Origin: a virus
Lineage: Duplodnaviria > Heunggongvirae > Uroviricota > Caudoviricetes
Length of the DNA stretch: 7,963 nt
Reading direction: 5' to 3' (one strand)
IMG/VR virus record: IMGVR_UViG_2636416161_000013
Coordinates: 1-7,963 of that record
Shown here: in pieces, positions 1-7,963 of the stretch
Position numbering within the stretch: the stretch's first letter is position 1
How the letters are laid out: every line of letters begins with the position of its first letter
Notes under the pieces: generated by a model
What the model saw: only the letters and a program-made list of their open reading frames with translations
What the model was told of the DNA's origin: nothing
Databases searched by the model: none
Program-made: the position numbers and the translations under genes

Positions 1-680
1 GCCACAGGAACCGAACGGGATTTTCCGTTTTTGGTGTTAAAGAACGTCACCCGGTTGCCAACGATATGCTCTCCACGTAGTTCCGATGCTTCACTCCATC
101 GGGCACCAGTAGAAAGACACAGAATGGCAACACGACGCGCATCACCCTCCAGTCGCTCAAGAAGCCGTTCAATCTCATCATCAGAAAGAAAGGCCATCTC
201 TGTGTTCTGAACTTTCAGTTTTCGTATACCGCGTACAGGGTTCGCGTTGTGAAAGACCTCAGCTTCAATCAGCACCGTGAACATGGTAGACAGAACGCAC
301 AAGTCACGATTAATGCTGGATGGCATTAAGCCGGCCTGTAATTTCTCTGACCGATACTCAAGCATAAATTTTTGCGTCATCTGGCTGGCACGCGGATCTC
401 CCATTTCACGAATCACTTTCTCCATCCGGATCCTGTAGGTATCACCGTAAGCCTGGTTACGGCCATCAAGCATCCACCATATATCAAGCAGCTCTGATAA
501 TCTCCGTCGATCAGCAGGTTTAGCCAGCCATGGGTTGTTATGGAAATTCTGTAAAATATGTTCTTTGAAGGCCTCCGCACTCCCTTTCCTGACAAAAATT
601 TTACGTATCCGTTTGCCGTACGCCCCTTGGGGCCTGATATCGAGCAGCCATCGCCCATCATCCATCTTTCTGATCGACAT
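1..680 (-). CDS. Tyrosine recombinase / phage integrase, P2/186-like class; N-terminal 226 codons only, C-terminal catalytic end lies beyond the left window edge
   Basis: Minus-strand frame with ATG at 680-678 and no in-frame stop down to position 3; not in the supplied ORF track because it runs off the edge. Translation MSIRKMDDGRWLLDIRPQGAYGKRIRKIF...VAILCLSTGARWSEASELRGEHIVGNRVTFFNTKNGKSRSVPV shows an arm-binding-type N-terminus and the conserved LSTGARxSEA box carrying the first catalytic Arg of tyrosine recombinases. Strong SD AAGGAGG lies 10 nt upstream, inside the 3' end of the primase gene; primase stop TAA (685-683) is 2 nt from this ATG. Confidence 0.8.
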   Translation of the reverse strand, partial: MSIRKMDDGRWLLDIRPQGAYGKRIRKIFVRKGSAEAFKEHILQNFHNNPWLAKPADRRRLSELLDIWWMLDGRNQAYGDTYRIRMEKVIREMGDPRASQMTQKFMLEYRSEKLQAGLMPSSINRDLCVLSTMFTVLIEAEVFHNANPVRGIRKLKVQNTEMAFLSDDEIERLLERLEGDARRVAILCLSTGARWSEASELRGEHIVGNRVTFFNTKNGKSRSVPV

Positions 681-682
681 AC

Positions 683-3352
683 TTAAGCCCCCTCCTTGTT
701 ACTAAATATCCAGCATTTCAATACCTCCTTCTCTCTGGCCTCGGCTATTCCCCTCCCGGCGTTCGCCTGTCTGGATACCTCGCTACGGACGGGCTTGTAT
801 CCAATCAGCGATCGAGAACGGCCAGCCTTGAGAAGCTTTATCATTTCGGGATTGGTTTGGATCTTCACGTGGTGAACGGCGGCAACCTGCTCAAGTTGCG
901 GGATACTGACGGCAAACTCATTCTGCCGTCCCTTGCCAAAATGATTTACGCCGTATGCTGTGATGCCGTCCAGATAGTCGAACGCCTCCCAGAACGCCAT
1001 CACTTCCGGCAAGTCATCCATTACCGCTTTAGCCTGCTCCTCTGCCATTCGCTCCAGTTCCAGACATGTGGCATCAAGCCATTCATCCGGGATATCAATA
1101 ACGCATTTCAGCGCCCTGACCAGTGCAATTAGTTGCGCGTGATTTTTGGCAATACGCTGATGGCGAATATTCTCGCAACCGTAAAGGCGGGTTGTTTCAG
1201 AATCCGAGAGTGCCATAAACAGATCCATAATCGCCCGCTCCTGGCTTACTGCCCGATGGATAAAACCTGATACCTGCTCAACGGGGTAAAGCTCCAGCCG
1301 TTTTGCTGCCAGTCGGCTATCTGGTGAGTGGCGTTTTTTATCGGTGTATATACGTACCAGACGCTCGATAATTGCCGATGAGGCGTTTACCGTGGCATTC
1401 TGCGCAATCACGACAGCCCCTTTAAAAACGGGGTCATATGTGGCGTTATCATTAGTTTTAACACCACGTACCCCAATACCACCGCCGTTATAGAGGCTTT
1501 TCAGGTTATCAAAGTCAAACGCACCTCTTTTTTGCGCATTGTCCCCCCGGTCTGCTTCAATCAGAACAACAGGTAATCCGGCGACCTGTCCAAAAGTTCG
1601 CTTCCAGCCTGATTCCGATCCTTTGGTTGGATCAACACCTTCATAGTTGTCACGGCCACACAAACGCCAACAAAAATCAATCAGCGTTGTTTTACCCGTT
1701 CCAGGCTCTCCGGTAATCTCAAGAAAAGGGTAAGACGTGTTTTTCTGCCTGATTTGTTCGCTGAACAACGAACCCAGCCAGAAGGCCAGGGTAATAATTC
1801 CCTTTTCACCAAAAGCCAGCCAGAGATCTTCCACCCAGGATATTGTGAATTTATCCGGTTTTTTATAGTTAATCTGCAATATTGGTTTTTTATTCAATGG
1901 TTTTGCGTTTATGCCATCAATTTCAAAATAATCCTCTTCATTGATTTCGTAGGTTTTACCATTACAAACCGCGACATCATTAAACAGCCACGCGCCAATC
2001 TCTTTGTTGTATCCGATAAAATCCTGACCGATAACATTTTTTATTGCGGGAAGGTCATTTTTTATTAATGCATCAAGGTGCGCAGTCGTTCCGGTATAAA
2101 TACCGCCTTTTGCCACATGCAACAGGCGTTTTTTAAATTCAGATGCGGATGTTAATTGTCCTGATGTAAAGGTGTTTTTCACCGTCGCACCATCCGGGAA
2201 CGTAACACGGAAGTAATACCATGCTTCATCCGTGTCATTGTTTCGAATGTAATAAAGCGGCGCCGGGTTACAGTTTGCGATTTCTTTTACAGCGCCGGAT
2301 TCCTTAAGTGCAATTTTGCGCGCTTCATCTTCGTCAACATTTCGCTCATTTATGACGCGTTCAACAGCCTTCATATGGCGCTCAATATCCAGTTTGAACC
2401 AGAAAACACGGTTATCAAAAGTAAAATGAAATTCCTTTCGCTCACGAAAGGAAAACATTATCAGCGCCTTATCTCTCGGAGATTTTGCCAGCAATAAATC
2501 ACCGTAATAACGGTATCTTTTCACATCATGGCCACGCAGCTTTCCGGCGATGTGTAAATCATTCCAGTCGCGTTTATTACTGTTTTTTCCTGGTAACGCC
2601 GCTGCCGTTCTCCAGCCGTCTTCGGCGCTGCGTTCTGCATGTTTTTTCGCATAACGCTCACCCGCACGCCCGTTATCCAGCGCCCACACGATAACCGGAC
2701 GGGGATTATCCCCGCACAGCTTCGCCAGCTCTTCCAGCGCCTTATCAGGGTAGTTTACGGCAGACATGACAGAAACGGCCGCAATGCCATTCTGGTTAAG
2801 GCTGATGGCATCAAAGATACCCTCACAAATCCAGATTTCTTTGGCCTTGCTTAAATCATCTCCCGGATAAGCCCACCACAACCCCTTGTAGCTGCCGGAA
2901 AAATTCGCCTTGCGCGCGAAGCGTTCCGGTCGGTCTATGATGCGCTCCCACCACACGCCGTCAGCCAGTGTAAAACGCACAGTAGCGGCCTGTTCGCCGC
3001 TTTCCTTGTCCTGGTATCGCTCCTGAGTAAATGCTCCCTTCAGTGGCTCCACAGCAATATTGCGTGCTTCCAGAAGATAAGCTGTCGCCGCTGCGTATGG
3101 ATTGTCTTTCGTGCTGATATAGCGATCTGACCATGATGAAAACACATCCGGGTAAAGTTCTTTGGTCAACAGGTCTGTACCGCATTTATTTTCGCGCCCA
3201 CAGTGCACGATGTACGGCCTTTCAAGGCTGGTAAAGAGCTCCTTCTTTCCACATTGCGGACAAACACCATACCGGAGGTAGTTATTTTCTTCTTTGAAGT
3301 TGTAATCACGGATAAGACGGTTAATAATCTCTTTTCTGGTGTTATGTTTCAT
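683..3352 (-). CDS. P4 alpha-like bifunctional DNA primase / helicase (zinc ribbon, EGYATA/TOPRIM-like primase domain, P-loop NTPase)
   Basis: 889-aa ORF. CPQC...HCGRENKCG zinc-ribbon (about 3179-3262); ICEGIFDAISL primase motif resembling the EGYATA signature (about 2798-2830); Walker A GEPGTGKT verified on the nucleotides at 1688-1711; Walker B-like VVLIEAD (about 1550-1570). SD GGGGG about 8 nt upstream of the ATG at 3352. Confidence 0.9.
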   Translation of the reverse strand: MKHNTRKEIINRLIRDYNFKEENNYLRYGVCPQCGKKELFTSLERPYIVHCGRENKCGTDLLTKELYPDVFSSWSDRYISTKDNPYAAATAYLLEARNIAVEPLKGAFTQERYQDKESGEQAATVRFTLADGVWWERIIDRPERFARKANFSGSYKGLWWAYPGDDLSKAKEIWICEGIFDAISLNQNGIAAVSVMSAVNYPDKALEELAKLCGDNPRPVIVWALDNGRAGERYAKKHAERSAEDGWRTAAALPGKNSNKRDWNDLHIAGKLRGHDVKRYRYYGDLLLAKSPRDKALIMFSFRERKEFHFTFDNRVFWFKLDIERHMKAVERVINERNVDEDEARKIALKESGAVKEIANCNPAPLYYIRNNDTDEAWYYFRVTFPDGATVKNTFTSGQLTSASEFKKRLLHVAKGGIYTGTTAHLDALIKNDLPAIKNVIGQDFIGYNKEIGAWLFNDVAVCNGKTYEINEEDYFEIDGINAKPLNKKPILQINYKKPDKFTISWVEDLWLAFGEKGIITLAFWLGSLFSEQIRQKNTSYPFLEITGEPGTGKTTLIDFCWRLCGRDNYEGVDPTKGSESGWKRTFGQVAGLPVVLIEADRGDNAQKRGAFDFDNLKSLYNGGGIGVRGVKTNDNATYDPVFKGAVVIAQNATVNASSAIIERLVRIYTDKKRHSPDSRLAAKRLELYPVEQVSGFIHRAVSQERAIMDLFMALSDSETTRLYGCENIRHQRIAKNHAQLIALVRALKCVIDIPDEWLDATCLELERMAEEQAKAVMDDLPEVMAFWEAFDYLDGITAYGVNHFGKGRQNEFAVSIPQLEQVAAVHHVKIQTNPEMIKLLKAGRSRSLIGYKPVRSEVSRQANAGRGIAEAREKEVLKCWIFSNKEGA

Positions 3353-3364
3353 ATATAAATCCCC

Positions 3365-3393
3365 CCCACTGCACCTTTTGCAGTGGGTTTTTT
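3365..3393 (+). terminator. Hairpin (9-bp stem CCCACTGCA / TGCAGTGGG, 5-nt loop) followed by TTTTTT on the plus strand; intrinsic-terminator-like in the plus orientation
   Basis: Perfect inverted repeat 3365-3373 / 3379-3387, T-run 3388-3393. In the sense (minus) orientation it is preceded by an A-run and followed by GGGGAUUUAUAU, so it is not a canonical sense terminator; it abuts the primase SD. Confidence 0.5.
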
Positions 3394-3398
3394 ATTAA

Positions 3399-3698
3399 TT
3401 ACTCGTTGCTTATTGCTTTGGCAATCCCGGCGGTTTCGGCGCTATGCCATGAAAAAATTCCGCCGGATGAATGCATACCAGATTTTATTGATTGTAATTC
3501 CCTATAAATAATGTTAGACAGAGATGCAATTTCTTCATTTATAATTTCTGCTGATGCTCTGCCATTTTTATCGTCAAAAACCACAGATATTAAACTGACG
3601 AGATTAATCACATCTGTGAGATCTTCCTTTGCACTTTCTGTAAAAAAGCCAACATATTCTCTATCTAAAAAATTTTCGCTATTCTGACGTTTAGACAT
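3399..3698 (-). CDS. Hypothetical protein, 99 aa, moderately acidic, AT-rich gene
   Basis: ORF with ATG at 3698 and SD GGGGAG 5 nt upstream; stop TAA at 3401-3399. I counted about 15 Asp+Glu against 9 Lys+Arg. Visibly more AT-rich than flanking genes. No motif recognised. Confidence 0.6.
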   Translation of the reverse strand: MSKRQNSENFLDREYVGFFTESAKEDLTDVINLVSLISVVFDDKNGRASAEIINEEIASLSNIIYRELQSIKSGMHSSGGIFSWHSAETAGIAKAISNE

Positions 3699-3765
3699 AA
3701 AAACTCCCCGACCCGTTAAGGCCGAAATATAAATTTAATTCAGTTATCAGTTGGTAATTCGGGAA

Positions 3766-3996
3766 TCAGGCGGAAAGCTGCGTCACCTTCAACGCCCTGA
3801 AATGTGTCATTCCCAGCTCTTCCAGCCCTTCGGCTGCGCGGCGTATGGCTTCGCCCGGTCCCGTTCCGTATACCGTTGCATGTGCATGTGCATGTGCATG
3901 TTTGGTTAACCCACGTTTATTAACGGCATAACCCAACACAAAGAAACGTTTTTCACCACTGCCATTATTTTTACGGGATGTTGAACGGGTTTTCAT
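3766..3996 (-). CDS. Hypothetical protein, 76 aa, containing an internal (His-Ala)4 repeat
   Basis: ATG at 3996 overlaps the stop of the upstream ORF in an ATGA arrangement (translational coupling). Encodes KHAHAHAHAT from a hexanucleotide tandem repeat. No family recognised. Confidence 0.6.
   Translation of the reverse strand: MKTRSTSRKNNGSGEKRFFVLGYAVNKRGLTKHAHAHAHATVYGTGPGEAIRRAAEGLEELGMTHFRALKVTQLSA
3876..3899. repeat. Perfect hexanucleotide tandem repeat (GCATGT)x4 on plus = (CATGCA)x4 in sense, inside the 76-aa CDS
   Basis: Direct reading: gcatgt gcatgt gcatgt gcatgt at 3876-3899; in frame it encodes His-Ala x4. Confidence 0.9.
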
Positions 3997-4181
3997 TTCT
4001 TCACCTTTACCACTGATGCTGTGAGTTCTTCTTCTGGCAACTGATATTTCGGCGCAATTTCTTCCGTATACCTGATAGCGTCCCTTGCCGCTTTTCCTTT
4101 TGATTTATATTTATATGTGGTCCGGTAGTTTTCTTCCTCTCCTGTTACCACATTACGCAATTTAATATGAATCTCGTACAT
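3993..4181 (-). CDS. Hypothetical small protein, 62 aa (MYEIHIKLRN...)
   Basis: I prefer the internal ATG at 4181 over the track start at 4211: it has SD GGAGGGG 5 nt upstream and sits 2 nt after the stop of the preceding ORF, whereas 4211 has no usable SD and overlaps the upstream gene. Lys/Glu-rich; no motif recognised. Confidence 0.55.
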   Translation of the reverse strand: MYEIHIKLRNVVTGEEENYRTTYKYKSKGKAARDAIRYTEEIAPKYQLPEEELTASVVKVKK

Positions 4182-4183
4182 CG

Positions 4184-4366
4184 TTACCCCTCCATGATTT
4201 TTACTGCGCATTTGTGGGTTAATCGCCCCTGTTCATTCGTGCGGCTGTACTCCATGCGGCTGGCAGCACGCAGGGCATCATCACAGGTCTGATATTCCCT
4301 GACATGAAAAAACTGACGAACGTCGCCGCTCTGGCAGTTAATCAGGGTGATAAGGAGCTTAAACAT
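4184..4366 (-). CDS. Hypothetical small protein, 60 aa (MFKLLITLINCQSGD...)
   Basis: I prefer the ATG at 4366 (SD GGGAGG 6 nt upstream) over the track start at 4444, which is a GTG. It overlaps the stop of the upstream ORF as ATGTTTAA. No motif recognised. Confidence 0.55.
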   Translation of the reverse strand: MFKLLITLINCQSGDVRQFFHVREYQTCDDALRAASRMEYSRTNEQGRLTHKCAVKIMEG

Positions 4367-4886
4367 TGCACGCCTCCCGGATACGAATACGGGCAACAAA
4401 GACCAGACGGGATGCCGGAAGCAGGGCGCGCGCTTCGCGCTCACTGGCAGCGGTAACGGTATGAAGGCGAATATTTTTACCGTGGCACTGCATAAAGCGC
4501 CAGATAAAATCAGGGCGTGTTGATATAGCCATTTTGGCGGCTCCTTGATTAAGTTTACGGAGTCTCGCCAGCACGCTGCTAAACATGGTGGCGGGACGTA
4601 ACAGGGTTAGCAGACTGGCAATCAAGGAACCAGCGAGCGCAAAGGCTCCCCCATTACGCCCCGCCATAATACGGGGTAGGGTGGAATTACGGGCACAAAA
4701 AAACCGCATTACGGAAATATAGCGGCTACCCGCTTGATTGTTCAGGCTGCTAAACCCGGCACCCGCTTTATGAGGTGCGGGCAAACGATACGCCATGACA
4801 AAAAAGCGAGTCAAGCAATATTGCAAATTATTTTTGCTCACTTGCGCTGAGTGATTGATTTTAAAGAGTAAAAAAGCCATAATCAT
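4359..4886 (-). CDS. Hypothetical protein, 175 aa from the ATG at 4886, or about 145 aa if translation starts at the ATG at 4796 (MAYRLPAPHKAG...)
   Basis: Long minus-strand ORF whose stop overlaps the next gene start. The first 30 codons are AT-rich with only a weak SD (AGGCAGAA), so the true start is uncertain. No family recognised. Confidence 0.5.
   Translation of the reverse strand: MIMAFLLFKINHSAQVSKNNLQYCLTRFFVMAYRLPAPHKAGAGFSSLNNQAGSRYISVMRFFCARNSTLPRIMAGRNGGAFALAGSLIASLLTLLRPATMFSSVLARLRKLNQGAAKMAISTRPDFIWRFMQCHGKNIRLHTVTAASEREARALLPASRLVFVARIRIREACNV
4855..4883 (+). promoter_or_regulatory. Candidate sigma70-type promoter on the plus strand (TTGATT -17 bp- CATAAT), antisense to the small-ORF operon
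   Basis: -35-like TTGATT at 4855-4860 and -10-like CATAAT at 4878-4883 with a 17-bp spacer; a plus-strand hairpin/T-tract lies about 70-100 bp downstream. Motif match only, in an AT-rich region; weak evidence. Confidence 0.3.
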
Positions 4887-4948
4887 TTCTGCCTATTACT
4901 TCTTATTGCTGACTTTAGGTGCATTAAATGCACATCCTTGACTGGTTG

Positions 4949-4980
4949 GCTCGCTAGCTTCAGCGAGCTTCTTTTTTTTT
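4949..4980 (+). terminator. Rho-independent terminator-like hairpin on the plus strand (7-bp GC-rich stem GCTCGCT / AGCGAGC, 6-nt loop, then TTCTTTTTTTTT)
   Basis: Inverted repeat 4949-4955 / 4962-4968 followed by a T-tract at 4969-4980, nine of them consecutive. In the minus orientation the hairpin is preceded by an A-run and followed by non-U sequence, so it is oriented against the genes. Confidence 0.6.
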
Positions 4981-5080
4981 GCTCTGCTGCCAGTCCTTGG
5001 CCTCCTTCCCCCACATGTAGCAATACGTTCAGATCTGTAAGTTTTGCCACCCAGTGATGGACGCAATAAACCACCAACGC

Positions 5081-5401
5081 TTATTCAACTCTGGCGCTAC
5101 CGGATTCTCTCTCCCTTTTCTTTTTGGCGTTTTCGTATGGGTTATTCACTTTGGCAATAACTGGCGGATTACGTAGCCACCACAAAACATCACTTAACAG
5201 CCAGGTACATGAGCAACGCCCCAAAGAGTGACGAGGAGGAAAAGCACCGATCTTCTCCAGTTCCCAGCGGCGGGAGCGTGAAAGCGTGGTCATTTTTTTA
5301 CACTTCTCTTCCCTGATGCGTTCTTCGCAGTCAAAGCCATACTCGGCGAGTATGGTGCGGCGCTGTTCTGGAGTTGGTGGAATGAATGCGGATTGAGTCA
5401 T
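5081..5401 (-). CDS. alpA: AlpA-family (prophage CP4-57 regulatory / P4 Vis-like) helix-turn-helix transcriptional regulator, 106 aa with an N-terminal extension
   Basis: Translation contains MTTLSRSRRWELEKIGAFPPRHSLGRCSCTWLLSDVLWWL, matching the AlpA-type HTH pattern (SRST-like turn, G.FP, LG, W, Wl) as I recall it. ATG at 5401 with SD GGGGGA 4 nt upstream; an internal ATG at 5293 would give the about 70-aa core only. Confidence 0.8.
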   Translation of the reverse strand: MTQSAFIPPTPEQRRTILAEYGFDCEERIREEKCKKMTTLSRSRRWELEKIGAFPPRHSLGRCSCTWLLSDVLWWLRNPPVIAKVNNPYENAKKKRERESGSARVE

Positions 5402-5496
5402 ATTTCCCCCTATGTTTCTGAACTTTCGGGGGAGATTTTTGTTTTACGGAGTTTTGAAAGCAAGTATTAAAGGTCTTATTAAGATGCTTGCTGGTC

Positions 5497-6549
5497 TTAC
5501 TGAGATGATGCTTTAATCCATCTTGATATAGTACTTTTATCAAAGCGCATATTGAGTCCTGCCTCTCTTGCTTCCGCGGTCAATATATCAGCAAGTTTTA
5601 CCGGATTGTTTTCGAGTTCTTTATAATGAATAACAAGCATCGCACGAAAAAAATCCTTCATTGTTTTAGATAATCGTTCTATATTGTTTTTATTGGTGCA
5701 TATGTCTTTCTCTCCATCCTCAGAACTTAATATATTGTTACCCGCACACAAATATAAAGTATCTGCCAATGGATTAACATAATCTTTTCTTAACTCGCTA
5801 TTGGAGTTTGTAGCATTTTGTATTTTTAAAAAATCATTCTTTAAGATATATAAATCACCAATATCAAAAGAAACATCCTCAGTAACAATTAGTCCTATAT
5901 GTATATCAACGTCAGAAGCAATTATAATATTGCTATTAATTATTCGGTTGGCTTTAAACTTCTTATTAAAATCATAGTTGGCAAAAAAACTTCCCCCCAA
6001 AGCGAAAATGCCGCCTATTTCAACAAAATACTTATGGTATTTTTCTTGAATACCTTTAAATACTGGTGGCACAACTGCCACAGCTCTTTCATCCGTTGCT
6101 ATTCGATATACACTATATATGTGATAATTTTCCCCATAATATACCCCCCTGTTATAATAATTTAACAAAGCAAATGCAGTATCAATTGCTATGTCACCAA
6201 ATTTGGGCGCTACATATGAATGACTTAGAGATTCGCACATTGAATCAAATATAATTCTCGACTTGGTTTTTATATAATTAAAACCATGGTGTTCTGCCGC
6301 CCTTTCTGAAATGGCATCAAGATCAGATAACCGTGATTTACACGGTTCTGAATCCATAAACTTACGCAGACAATCGAAATTAACCACATCTTTTTCATCT
6401 GGGATATTTAATACTCCATATGCAGATTCAATTTTTATACAAATACGAATGCAGCCTGTCACAGCCCAATGAATAAGATCGTCAATATCGCAGTCTAATA
6501 ACTTTGCCGCGCGCTCAATAGGATAGTAATCTCTTAGTGGTAACGTCAT
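5497..6549 (-). CDS. Hypothetical protein, 350 aa, AT-rich gene immediately downstream of the integrase; function unknown
   Basis: ORF starts 16 bp after the integrase stop on the same strand with a weak SD. Asn/Ile/Tyr/Asp-rich product. N-terminal YYPIERAAKLLDCDIDDLIHWAVTG and C-terminal KSTISRWIK segments look HTH-like but match no motif I can name; no P-loop or other catalytic signature seen. Confidence 0.75.
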   Translation of the reverse strand: MTLPLRDYYPIERAAKLLDCDIDDLIHWAVTGCIRICIKIESAYGVLNIPDEKDVVNFDCLRKFMDSEPCKSRLSDLDAISERAAEHHGFNYIKTKSRIIFDSMCESLSHSYVAPKFGDIAIDTAFALLNYYNRGVYYGENYHIYSVYRIATDERAVAVVPPVFKGIQEKYHKYFVEIGGIFALGGSFFANYDFNKKFKANRIINSNIIIASDVDIHIGLIVTEDVSFDIGDLYILKNDFLKIQNATNSNSELRKDYVNPLADTLYLCAGNNILSSEDGEKDICTNKNNIERLSKTMKDFFRAMLVIHYKELENNPVKLADILTAEAREAGLNMRFDKSTISRWIKASSQ

Positions 6550-6565
6550 TCTTTTCGCTCACATA

Positions 6566-7768
6566 TTATTTATCTTTAACCATTTTTTCTAAACATTCAA
6601 GCCAGTCATTTAGAGCCTTTAATTTAAATGGGATATACTGGCTAAGATTATAGTTAAATTCTGCGGAGCCTGCATTATATACGTGACCTAATAATGACTC
6701 GACAATATGAGGCATTACCCCCATGTTGTTTAATCCAGTTGAAAATGTCCGTCTTAAATCGTGTAGTGTCCATTTTTCATTATGCCCGAATATTTTATAC
6801 ATTCTGCGACCTTTCAGAGAAACAGCTCTATGCGTTCTCTCCTCACCCAAAAGTAAGCCCGTCCTCCCGGTTTCCTGTTTTAGCTCTTTTAACCAGTCTC
6901 TTATGCCTTCGGGAATTGGCCGAATAATCTTTTTATTACTTTTACTGTTATTTCTTGGAACAATCCAAACCCATTCATTAAAATCCCACTCAATCCAATG
7001 AGAACGGCGAATCTCTACAGTTCTAGCCCCAAAGACAATAAGCAACTTTATTAATCTAGAAAAATAAATATCCCGATGTTTCTCCTTTGCAAAATACCAA
7101 AGATCTGATAGTTCGGCATCACTCAAAACACGGTCGCGCTGTCCGGCAGATTCCCCTACATCGGTTAACGTTAAATGAACCAGGGCATCACTGATGGCAT
7201 AACGCCGAACATTGCAAAACCGCAATGCCTGCTTGGAGAGCTGAAACATACGCCCCGCCGTTTTTGAACTTATAGCGCGAATCTCATCAAAACATTTTAC
7301 CCAATGGCGAGTATCGCACCGTGATAACGGATAATGGCCTATTCTGGGGTAGACATGTTTGCAGAATTGCGCCCTTATCAATTCCTCATCTTTGCGCTTA
7401 TGTCTTGCATAATTGACCAACCAATATTCCAACGCATCTCGAACAGTAACAGGAGCACGGGATTCTTCAGTAAAAAGTTGGAGTTCAATTTTTGGATCAA
7501 GACCATTAGCCAACCATTGACGGCAACGCTCACGCCACATCCTGGCATCTTTCAGACTAATATCAGGGTAATTCCCTAGAGTAAGACGAATAACTGAACT
7601 CTCACGCCCTCCAAGGCGATATGAAAAAACCCAGCTCACATGCCCTTTAGTTGATAACCTGACCCCTAACCCCTCTCCGTCAGCAAGCATTTCAACACGA
7701 TCCCTATGCGTTCCTTGCAGCGCCTTTAGTTTCCTGTCGCTGAGCTTATTCGTTCCAGACATCATCAC
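6566..7768 (-). CDS. int: Site-specific tyrosine integrase, P4 / CP4-57 family (tRNA-island type)
   Basis: 400-aa ORF. N-terminal arm-binding-like region LSDRKLKAL...GLGVRLSTKGHVSWVFSYRLGG...LGNYP.ISLKDAR and C-terminal catalytic region HDLRRTFST...LLGHVYN...Y. The track start at 7768 is a GTG; the first ATGs are at 7765 and 7762. Confidence 0.9.
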   Translation of the reverse strand: MMMSGTNKLSDRKLKALQGTHRDRVEMLADGEGLGVRLSTKGHVSWVFSYRLGGRESSVIRLTLGNYPDISLKDARMWRERCRQWLANGLDPKIELQLFTEESRAPVTVRDALEYWLVNYARHKRKDEELIRAQFCKHVYPRIGHYPLSRCDTRHWVKCFDEIRAISSKTAGRMFQLSKQALRFCNVRRYAISDALVHLTLTDVGESAGQRDRVLSDAELSDLWYFAKEKHRDIYFSRLIKLLIVFGARTVEIRRSHWIEWDFNEWVWIVPRNNSKSNKKIIRPIPEGIRDWLKELKQETGRTGLLLGEERTHRAVSLKGRRMYKIFGHNEKWTLHDLRRTFSTGLNNMGVMPHIVESLLGHVYNAGSAEFNYNLSQYIPFKLKALNDWLECLEKMVKDK

Positions 7769-7777
7769 CGTTCCGAT

Positions 7778-7800
7778 ATTGATACACGCATTGATACACG
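7778..7800. repeat. Two tandem direct copies of ATTGATACACG (7778-7788 and 7790-7800, 12-bp period) 10-30 bp upstream of the integrase start
   Basis: Read directly from the sequence; the position in the int 5' region suggests a protein-binding (operator or arm-type) site. Confidence 0.7.
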
Positions 7801-7810
7801 TGAAATATTA

Positions 7811-7889
7811 ATATCCAGAAAAAATGAAATCGAGCATGAACACAAAATCACTACAACATAATGATTTTGATTGATTTTTTATATCCAGA
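7811..7889. repeat. Direct repeat ATATCCAGA at 7811-7819 and 7881-7889 in the AT-rich region upstream of int
   Basis: Two exact 9-bp copies 70 bp apart; a 10-bp AT palindrome ATATTAATAT (7805-7814) overlaps the first copy. Confidence 0.5.
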
Positions 7890-7963
7890 GGGTAAACACC
7901 AGAAAAGTCAGGAACATAAAAAACATTACTTCTACAGTATGTTTCATATCTCTAACCATATGA

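Follow-up and report, generated by a model that had tools for sequence, protein, structure and literature searches.

What does a hairpin followed by a run of T do in a short intergenic segment of a phage satellite, on the strand opposite to every annotated gene? The 7963-bp window analysed here (the whole stretch of DNA, positions 1 to 7,963 of the IMG/VR record IMGVR_UViG_2636416161_000013) is a P4-like phage satellite of Escherichia coli with int, orf350, alpA, immunity RNAs and a primase, and its sequence was identical to the chromosomal island adjoining gcd in E. coli NCTC9082. All annotated genes of the window lie on the minus strand. An earlier note on this DNA had drawn attention to the spacer between alpA and the next gene, had given its length correctly as 194 bp (the alpA stop codon is at 5081–5083 and the next ATG, which opens a frame resembling P4 eta, at 4886), and had rightly described a hairpin there as oriented against every gene. 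We propose that the segment 4855–4980 within this spacer and its border is an independent plus-strand transcription unit, which would produce a cis-antisense RNA of the sar/OOP kind directed at transcripts reading through from alpA, and we would give this explanation an even chance of being correct. The satellite probably makes an unannotated RNA of about 85–90 nt, running counter to all its genes, as judged from the sequence features described below.

The plus-strand sequence from 4948 to 4980 has the features of an intrinsic (Rho-independent) terminator. The stem-loop GGCTCGCT-AGCTTC-AGCGAGCT (4948–4969, 8–9 bp) had a stem energy of −12.3 kcal/mol, or −13.3 kcal/mol in the commonest variant, and was followed by the T-tract TCT9 (T4970, C4971, T4972–4980). 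A strict scan (at least 8 bp, at least 5 G-C pairs and at least 7 T in 9) returned two sites only in the window, at 3365 and 4948, both on the plus strand, for a mean of 0.01 sites per window in 300 dinucleotide shuffles; the hairpin and T-tract first noticed in the spacer were thus borne out, far beyond chance. Read on the minus strand, the hairpin precedes AACCAGUC and lacks a U-tract; for transcription running with the genes it is therefore no intrinsic terminator.

Promoter-like hexamers were present on the same strand 65 nt 5' of the hairpin. The −35-like TTGATT (4855–4860) and the −10-like CATAAT (4878–4883) are separated by 17 bp (9/12 matches), exactly the pair that the earlier note had pointed out. 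On the opposite strand the −35 falls within codons 9–11 of the eta-like open reading frame (ORF), and the −10 overlaps the ATGATTATG start codons of that frame. The comparison set used to follow these motifs was anchored on the opposite-strand promoter (ATGACAAAAAAGCGAGTCAA) and hence was unselected for them. It was drawn from E. coli genomes, viral contigs and metagenome contigs, and comprised 30 loci with 24 distinct sequences; additional scans based on the primase in the species genomes and on alpA in the viral sequences gave one locus and four loci, respectively, the latter all already in the set, and the comparison is shallow. The −35 was kept in 24/24 distinct sequences, the sole change, T to A in L021, being towards consensus. 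The −10 was invariant and the 17-bp spacing constant in all 24, and variable positions amounted to 9/17 in the spacer versus 1/12 in the hexamers (Fisher p = 0.02). The hairpin stems were intact in 22/22 variants, so that both motifs proposed for a conservation check turned out to be conserved in the relatives.

The segment between promoter and terminator behaved very differently. Sixteen distinct sequences (type A) had the same RNA body as the window; one of them, L016 (type A'), had the middle of the body replaced with both ends retained. In six others (type B) the promoter-like pair was common with type A and was followed by complete divergence from about position 4891, the predicted +1. 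Type B sequences nevertheless had their own plus-strand terminator, CGGCCCG...CGGGCCG followed by TTTTCTTTT, about 60 nt downstream. It abuts the stop codon of a gene unlike the upstream gene of type A, namely a P2-family capsid gene. A role in cis needs no particular RNA sequence, and this would explain how promoter and terminator could be kept while the body was swapped.

The two hairpins also differed in what their variation says about the active strand. In type A the eight pairs of the stem were invariant in the 16 distinct sequences, with three variable loop positions and a T-run varying from 6 to 9, a pattern that selection on the stem could produce; at the base of the stem, G·U on the plus strand would correspond to C·A on the minus strand. 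In type B, 48/48 stem cells paired on the plus strand, and the two variable pairs, GU/AU and CG/UG, would fail to pair on the minus strand (C·A and A·C). The covariation check suggested at the outset was accordingly uninformative for type A, where nothing in the stem varies, and favoured the plus strand in type B. Two hypervariable patches flank the unit. A hexamer at 4838–4843, midway between the back-to-back −35 elements, read CTCACT, CGATGT, CGCGAT, TGCGAT and others, and a heptamer at 4995–5001, just beyond the terminator, read TCCTTGG, CGCCCGA, TACCCGG, TGATCGG and others. Each patch had at least seven alleles among close relatives, and the alleles of the two patches did not co-vary mutually.

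From these features we infer a plus-strand RNA of about 82–90 nt (~4891–4980), with a predicted 5' end at G4891 and a 3' end in the T-tract. The plus-strand RNA of about 90 nt put forward by the earlier note is thus the best reading of the comparative data (a promoter, some 85–90 nt and a terminator), and remains putative. The RNA would have a U-rich 5' part, an internal stem-loop and the terminator. The internal stem-loop corresponds to a perfect 6-bp palindrome, GTGCAT-TAA-ATGCAC (4919–4933, plus strand), in which five pairs were invariant and the apical pair was lost in 8/15 sequences, L016 having a different segment there. Outside the terminator the fold of the whole predicted RNA was unremarkable (z = −1.35). 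The RNA would end 100 nt short of the alpA stop codon, with no overlap with the alpA coding region. Rfam searches gave no match at 4855–4980 on either strand at E ≤ 1, the only matches in the whole window being C4, isrK and c4-a1b1, and none at the candidate in the type B and A' loci at E ≤ 0.1. The candidate RNA is unannotated in RefSeq and absent from Rfam, and would be of a sar/OOP-like kind.

Other readings of the segment were discarded. The small peptide MHILDWLAR, encoded by a 9-codon ATG frame at 4928, was lost in L016 and shifted in L021, in agreement with the initial observation that no plus-strand ORF of meaningful size lies between promoter and terminator. An ORF bridging alpA and the eta-like start was open in the window haplotype only; the open length ranged from 19 to 89 codons and the start codons varied. 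The polymorphism in T-run length shifts the frame, leaving no conserved ORF across the T-tract on either strand. A dispersed repeat similar to repetitive extragenic palindromes was rejected as well, the 60 places found in 57 genomes being always in the same context.

The significance of an antisense RNA at this place depends on what lies on the other strand. The earlier note had treated the gene starting at 4886 as the first small ORF of an operon. It is no ordinary small gene but a P4 eta-like frame of 175 codons (4359–4886, minus strand) with a C-terminal Icd domain, recognised by NCBIfam at residues 127–168 only, and it encloses the constitutive promoter, the seqA/isrK leader, the CI/C4 RNA and the Icd/Kil domain. 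The constitutive immunity promoter, TTGACT-18-TATCGT (4814–4785, minus strand), is PLE-like, has its transcription start at about 4778 and stops 7 nt short of the isrK 5' end. The seqA/isrK-like leader with its own terminator (4697–4778, minus strand) matched Rfam RF01394 with 52.1 bits (gathering 50) and c4-a1b1 with 29.5 bits, and the C4/CI-type immunity RNA (4584–4671, minus strand) matched RF01695 with 74.7 bits (gathering 45, E 1e-13); the c4 segment was 81% identical to that of phage P1 at the DNA level. In structure, isrK is homologous to P4 seqA, and pairing of CI with seqA/seqC leads to early termination (PMC4825925). The surrounding module is a P4-type RNA immunity module, C4/CI and an isrK/seqA leader behind a constitutive promoter, enclosed in an eta-like frame. 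It follows that the segment targeted by the candidate would not be the normal leader of the operon, contrary to what had been assumed: the normal transcript starts inside the ORF, at about 4778. This start and that of the predicted RNA (~4891) are divergent, back-to-back and 113 bp apart, and the predicted RNA does not overlap the main immunity transcript.

The eta-like frame was open in 24/25 distinct variants. In 25 distinct relatives, variable sites per codon position were 20/23/21 in the 5' extension (117 codons) and 6/8/16 in the Icd core; the first 117 codons show no coding-type substitution pattern, yet the frame is kept open. The true Icd/Kil-like protein is most likely the 57-aa product of 4359–4532 (ATG 4532, Shine-Dalgarno (SD) sequence AAGGAG), which holds the entire Icd-like domain. 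A BLASTP search of the eta-like ORF against P4 Eta gave no match, the common Icd domain being visible by hidden Markov model (HMM) only. We rejected an annotation artefact as the explanation of the 175-codon ORF, given its openness in the variants and the P4 eta precedent. The NCBI Prokaryotic Genome Annotation Pipeline (PGAP) calls the full frame a 173–175-aa "host cell division inhibitor Icd-like protein" and leaves the C4 and isrK RNAs unannotated; the same annotation was seen in L001 (6060–6581) and across hundreds of E. coli records, with the Icd-like domain limited to the final ~50 residues of the annotated protein. The most variable parts of the immunity module were the C4 loop (the CAATCAAGG region, 4619–4627) and the stretch 4533–4583, which comprises the Icd SD and the presumed a2/b2 target and had 23/51 variable positions. 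Such variation is what one would expect if immunity specificities co-vary, as in the case of P1 and P7. More distant c4/isrK modules in tandem were observed in L033–L036, E. coli elements of the phage-inducible chromosomal island (PICI) type, L033 having two C4 and two isrK; these modules were preceded by a short Icd-like ORF with an 8-nt overlap with the long one, a P4-like coupling, and by a divergent ylcI/ynfO gene.

Comparison with P4 itself shows both how closely the module is followed and where it departs. In P4, a long frame (8168–8812) encloses PLE, seqA and CI and has an Icd-like domain at residues 147–194 of 200, a layout like that of the window. The geometry is also the same, with PLE at 8728–8699, an isrK-type leader from 8692 and the CI RNA at 8507–8420. 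The DNA of the window c4 module is nearer to phage P1 than to P4, and the primase only remotely resembles P4 alpha. The vis stop and the eta start overlap in P4 (GCATGATGATG), and PLE begins 35 nt past the vis stop, whereas the window has the 194-nt spacer; the translational coupling of eta to vis/alpA was not found in the window, where the gap stands instead. No plus-strand unit and no plus-strand terminator were found between vis and PLE in P4, and rows spread across 1027 E. coli loci covering most of the P4 vis–CI query showed no insertion, vis and eta being adjacent. The candidate unit is therefore not part of canonical P4 immunity and sits where the P4 vis–eta coupling was lost. In type B relatives (L008, 1680–2732; L012; L020; L041/L042), a P2-family major capsid gene and another ORF were located between alpA and the eta-like start, indicating that the alpA–eta gap is an insertion site in this satellite family. 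Some members of the family encode their own capsid protein.

A passage of PMC10111431, summarising Forti et al. 1999, places the constitutive promoter of P4 inside eta, the short form being Kil, describes full-length Eta as translatable solely from the upstream late promoter, and states that translation of eta prevents termination. No minus-strand terminator was found in the window between 5080 and 4815, from alpA to the eta-like start, which makes read-through from alpA plausible; an Ogr/Delta-type late promoter motif (TGT-N12-ACA) was absent near alpA. We propose the following model. A sigma-70-type promoter (−35 at 4855–4860, −10 at 4878–4883) would start transcription near G4891, and the intrinsic terminator at 4948–4980 would release an RNA of about 82–90 nt, halting the antisense transcript before it enters alpA, orf350 and int. 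The RNA would act in cis on transcripts reading through from alpA. By the P4 precedent, only these transcripts would translate the full eta-like frame, and this translation would suppress the CI/C4-dependent early termination by which the replication genes are kept switched off. Three routes can be envisaged: the RNA may pair with the 5' leader just ahead of the eta-like AUG and occlude the ribosome landing region, the duplex may trigger cleavage, or the polymerases may collide head-on. By any of them, leaky upstream transcription would be kept from opening the replication operon, and the candidate RNA may thus be an extra brake on the switch of the satellite to replication. The complementarity to a ribosome-binding site (RBS) and leader, as first suggested, would hold for the leader of the read-through transcripts and, in type A, for the SD; it would not extend to the start codon or to the normal immunity transcript.

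Several observations weigh against this model. The promoter score was not above chance, 13 such sites being present in the window versus 15.8 expected in shuffles, and the conservation of CATAAT has a second explanation in the ATGATTATG start codons with which it coincides. The predicted 5' end (~4890–4891) lies 4–5 nt upstream of the AUG, so that the start codon is uncovered; a weak SD (AGG, 4892–4894) is within the predicted RNA in type A only, and in type B the likely SD is just outside. Only this weak SD precedes the eta-like frame, whose translation from read-through transcripts is putative. The invariance of the type A stem means that it offers no compensatory covariation. Finally, all comparison sequences are close relatives (Escherichia, at least 85% identity) that fall into two or three haplotype blocks, and the variable sites represent few independent events; type A was carried by 57/5426 complete E. 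coli genomes, with no well-studied strain recognised among the carriers listed.

One alternative is that the terminator is an insulator only, its hairpin and T-tract keeping stray plus-strand transcription from alpA, orf350 and int, with an RNA devoid of function and hexamers retained as start codons or as the upstream region of the immunity promoter. The coincidence of the −10 with start codons and the chance-level score are in its favour, as are the lack of conservation of the RNA body between types A and B and the second plus-strand terminator (3365–3387), which suggests a general habit of blocking antisense transcription. Yet a terminator is selectable only if transcription reaches it, the −35 and the 17-bp spacing persisted where the codons are otherwise free of constraint, and a terminator is found 60–90 nt from the same −10 in both lineages. 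We consider this possibility unlikely; its sole difference from the antisense unit proposed here is that the RNA, or its transcription, would have no regulatory effect.

A trans-acting small RNA (sRNA) of the Hfq-dependent type, using the U-rich 5' segment UUCUUAUUGYUGR as a seed for host or helper-phage mRNAs, appears very improbable. The layout would be typical, with a U-rich, single-stranded 5' segment and a long U tail at the terminator, and the 13-nt motif is common to the otherwise unrelated type A and B bodies. However, when the translation-initiation regions of 42 P2 and 9 island genes were scanned for duplexes, the best energies were −20 to −22 kcal/mol, against a shuffled-RNA null median of −20 to −22 kcal/mol, and the seed itself was variable (GCUGAC, GUUGGU, GUGGUU).

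Equally slight is the probability that the hairpin acts in a minus-strand RNA, for processing or stabilising the alpA 3' untranslated region (UTR) or the read-through transcript, or acts as a DNA palindrome, with an incidental T-run. The same hairpin does fold in the minus-strand RNA (8 bp and a tetraloop in the window variant), and the region would be transcribed on that strand if alpA reads through, but a U-tract is missing there, the type A basal pair and both type B variable pairs are mismatches on that strand, and a T-tract of 6–9 was kept in every variant and also behind the unrelated type B hairpin. Just as improbable is a segment without function, left over from a recombination junction or from a divergent gene since lost: related PICI-type elements do have a plus-strand ylcI gene (ylcI/ynfO) diverging from the immunity side, and the alpA–eta gap is a site of insertions, with the capsid gene of type B, but no sequence similarity to the ylcI promoter region was found, the stems stayed intact despite frequent changes in loop, body and flanks, and two independent terminators are hard to attribute to drift.

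The layout of the proposed antisense unit is closest to that of the sar RNA of phage P22. Sar belongs to a phage immunity operon (immI region) and is a 68–69-nt RNA whose promoter lies inside the 5' end of its target gene; it is read backwards across the intercistronic region, covers the RBS and start of ant, and ends at an intrinsic terminator close to the gene upstream. Similarly, the putative promoter in the window lies in codons 1–11 of the eta-like frame, the RNA would run across the spacer, and the type B terminator touches the upstream stop codon. Unlike sar, the predicted RNA, putative here, would begin 4–5 nt upstream of the AUG, has no sequence or Rfam relationship to it, and would have as its target an eta-like ORF of the "translate-to-antiterminate" kind in place of an antirepressor gene.

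The lambda OOP RNA, 77 nt long, is cis-antisense and has a promoter and an intrinsic terminator of its own; it is convergent with cII and causes RNase III-dependent decay (PMC5415839). The predicted RNA would likewise be convergent with an upstream regulatory gene, here alpA; unlike OOP, which overlaps the 3' end of the cII coding sequence, it would overlap only the alpA 3' UTR or read-through transcript, and the two show no homology. It also resembles the sRNAs of islands and prophages of pathogenic E. coli (Esr41, AgvB, AsxR, Pas RNAs, STnc100), being short, terminator-ended and on a mobile element. Identity with Esr41, AgvB, AsxR or STnc100 was rejected, as none had an Rfam match in the window at E ≤ 1; Esr41 is on SpLE1 and the Pas RNAs have been reported from Stx-type phages, contexts unlike that of the satellite.

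The second strict terminator-like site of the window belongs to a comparable arrangement. The hairpin CCCACTGCA-CCTTT-TGCAGTGGG followed by T6 (3365–3393, plus strand) sits where orf99 and the primase gene are separated by 46 nt. A promoter-like pair, TTGTAA-17-AATAAT (3300–3328), was observed about 35 nt 5' of it, and the whole arrangement (3300–3398) is opposite the primase start at 3352; a putative RNA of about 60 nt would be antisense to the primase RBS and start. In relatives this hairpin had three stem sequences with compensating changes (CCCCACCGT/ACGGTGGGG in L021, CCCCCTGTA/TACAGGGGG in L006). On the minus strand it is located just 5' of the primase SD, so that either strand could matter. 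A more ambitious version of our model would be that the satellite family replaced the vis–eta coupling of P4 by an RNA gate, the antisense RNA made back-to-back with the immunity promoter deciding whether upstream (alpA/late) transcripts get the eta-like frame translated and thereby overcome CI/C4-dependent termination, and that, together with this second antisense unit (~3335–3393), small RNAs control the passage from lysogeny to replication almost entirely, the body of the first being a swappable cassette (A, A', B). We regard this version as conceivable, though doubtful.

The remaining genes complete the picture of the element. The integrase (6566–7768) is followed by orf350 (5497–6549), a 350-aa ORF with no Pfam or NCBIfam match, and by alpA (5081–5401), the homologue of P4 vis (Pfam Phage_AlpA, E 3e-7; 32% identity to P4 Vis, E 9e-12), all on the minus strand. 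In the relatives, different proteins with differing WP accessions were found at the orf350 position, which may be a variable cargo slot. Beyond the immunity module the window contains a run of small ORFs and then the 889-aa Toprim primase-helicase. One of the small ORFs, orf76 (3766–3996, minus strand, 76 aa), has a hexanucleotide repeat, TGCATG x 3.5 (3877–3898), encoding HAHAHAHA, whose length could change in frame by slippage.

P4 is the standard example of how a small RNA confers immunity by terminating transcription prematurely, and there the override requires eta to be translated from an upstream promoter. The labels given by PGAP hide the real content of this region of satellite islands in genome records. 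If our explanation is correct, the antisense gene at the vis–eta junction would constitute a natural experiment on the gating of this override, and would add a third RNA player, beside CI and seqA, to a well-defined circuit.

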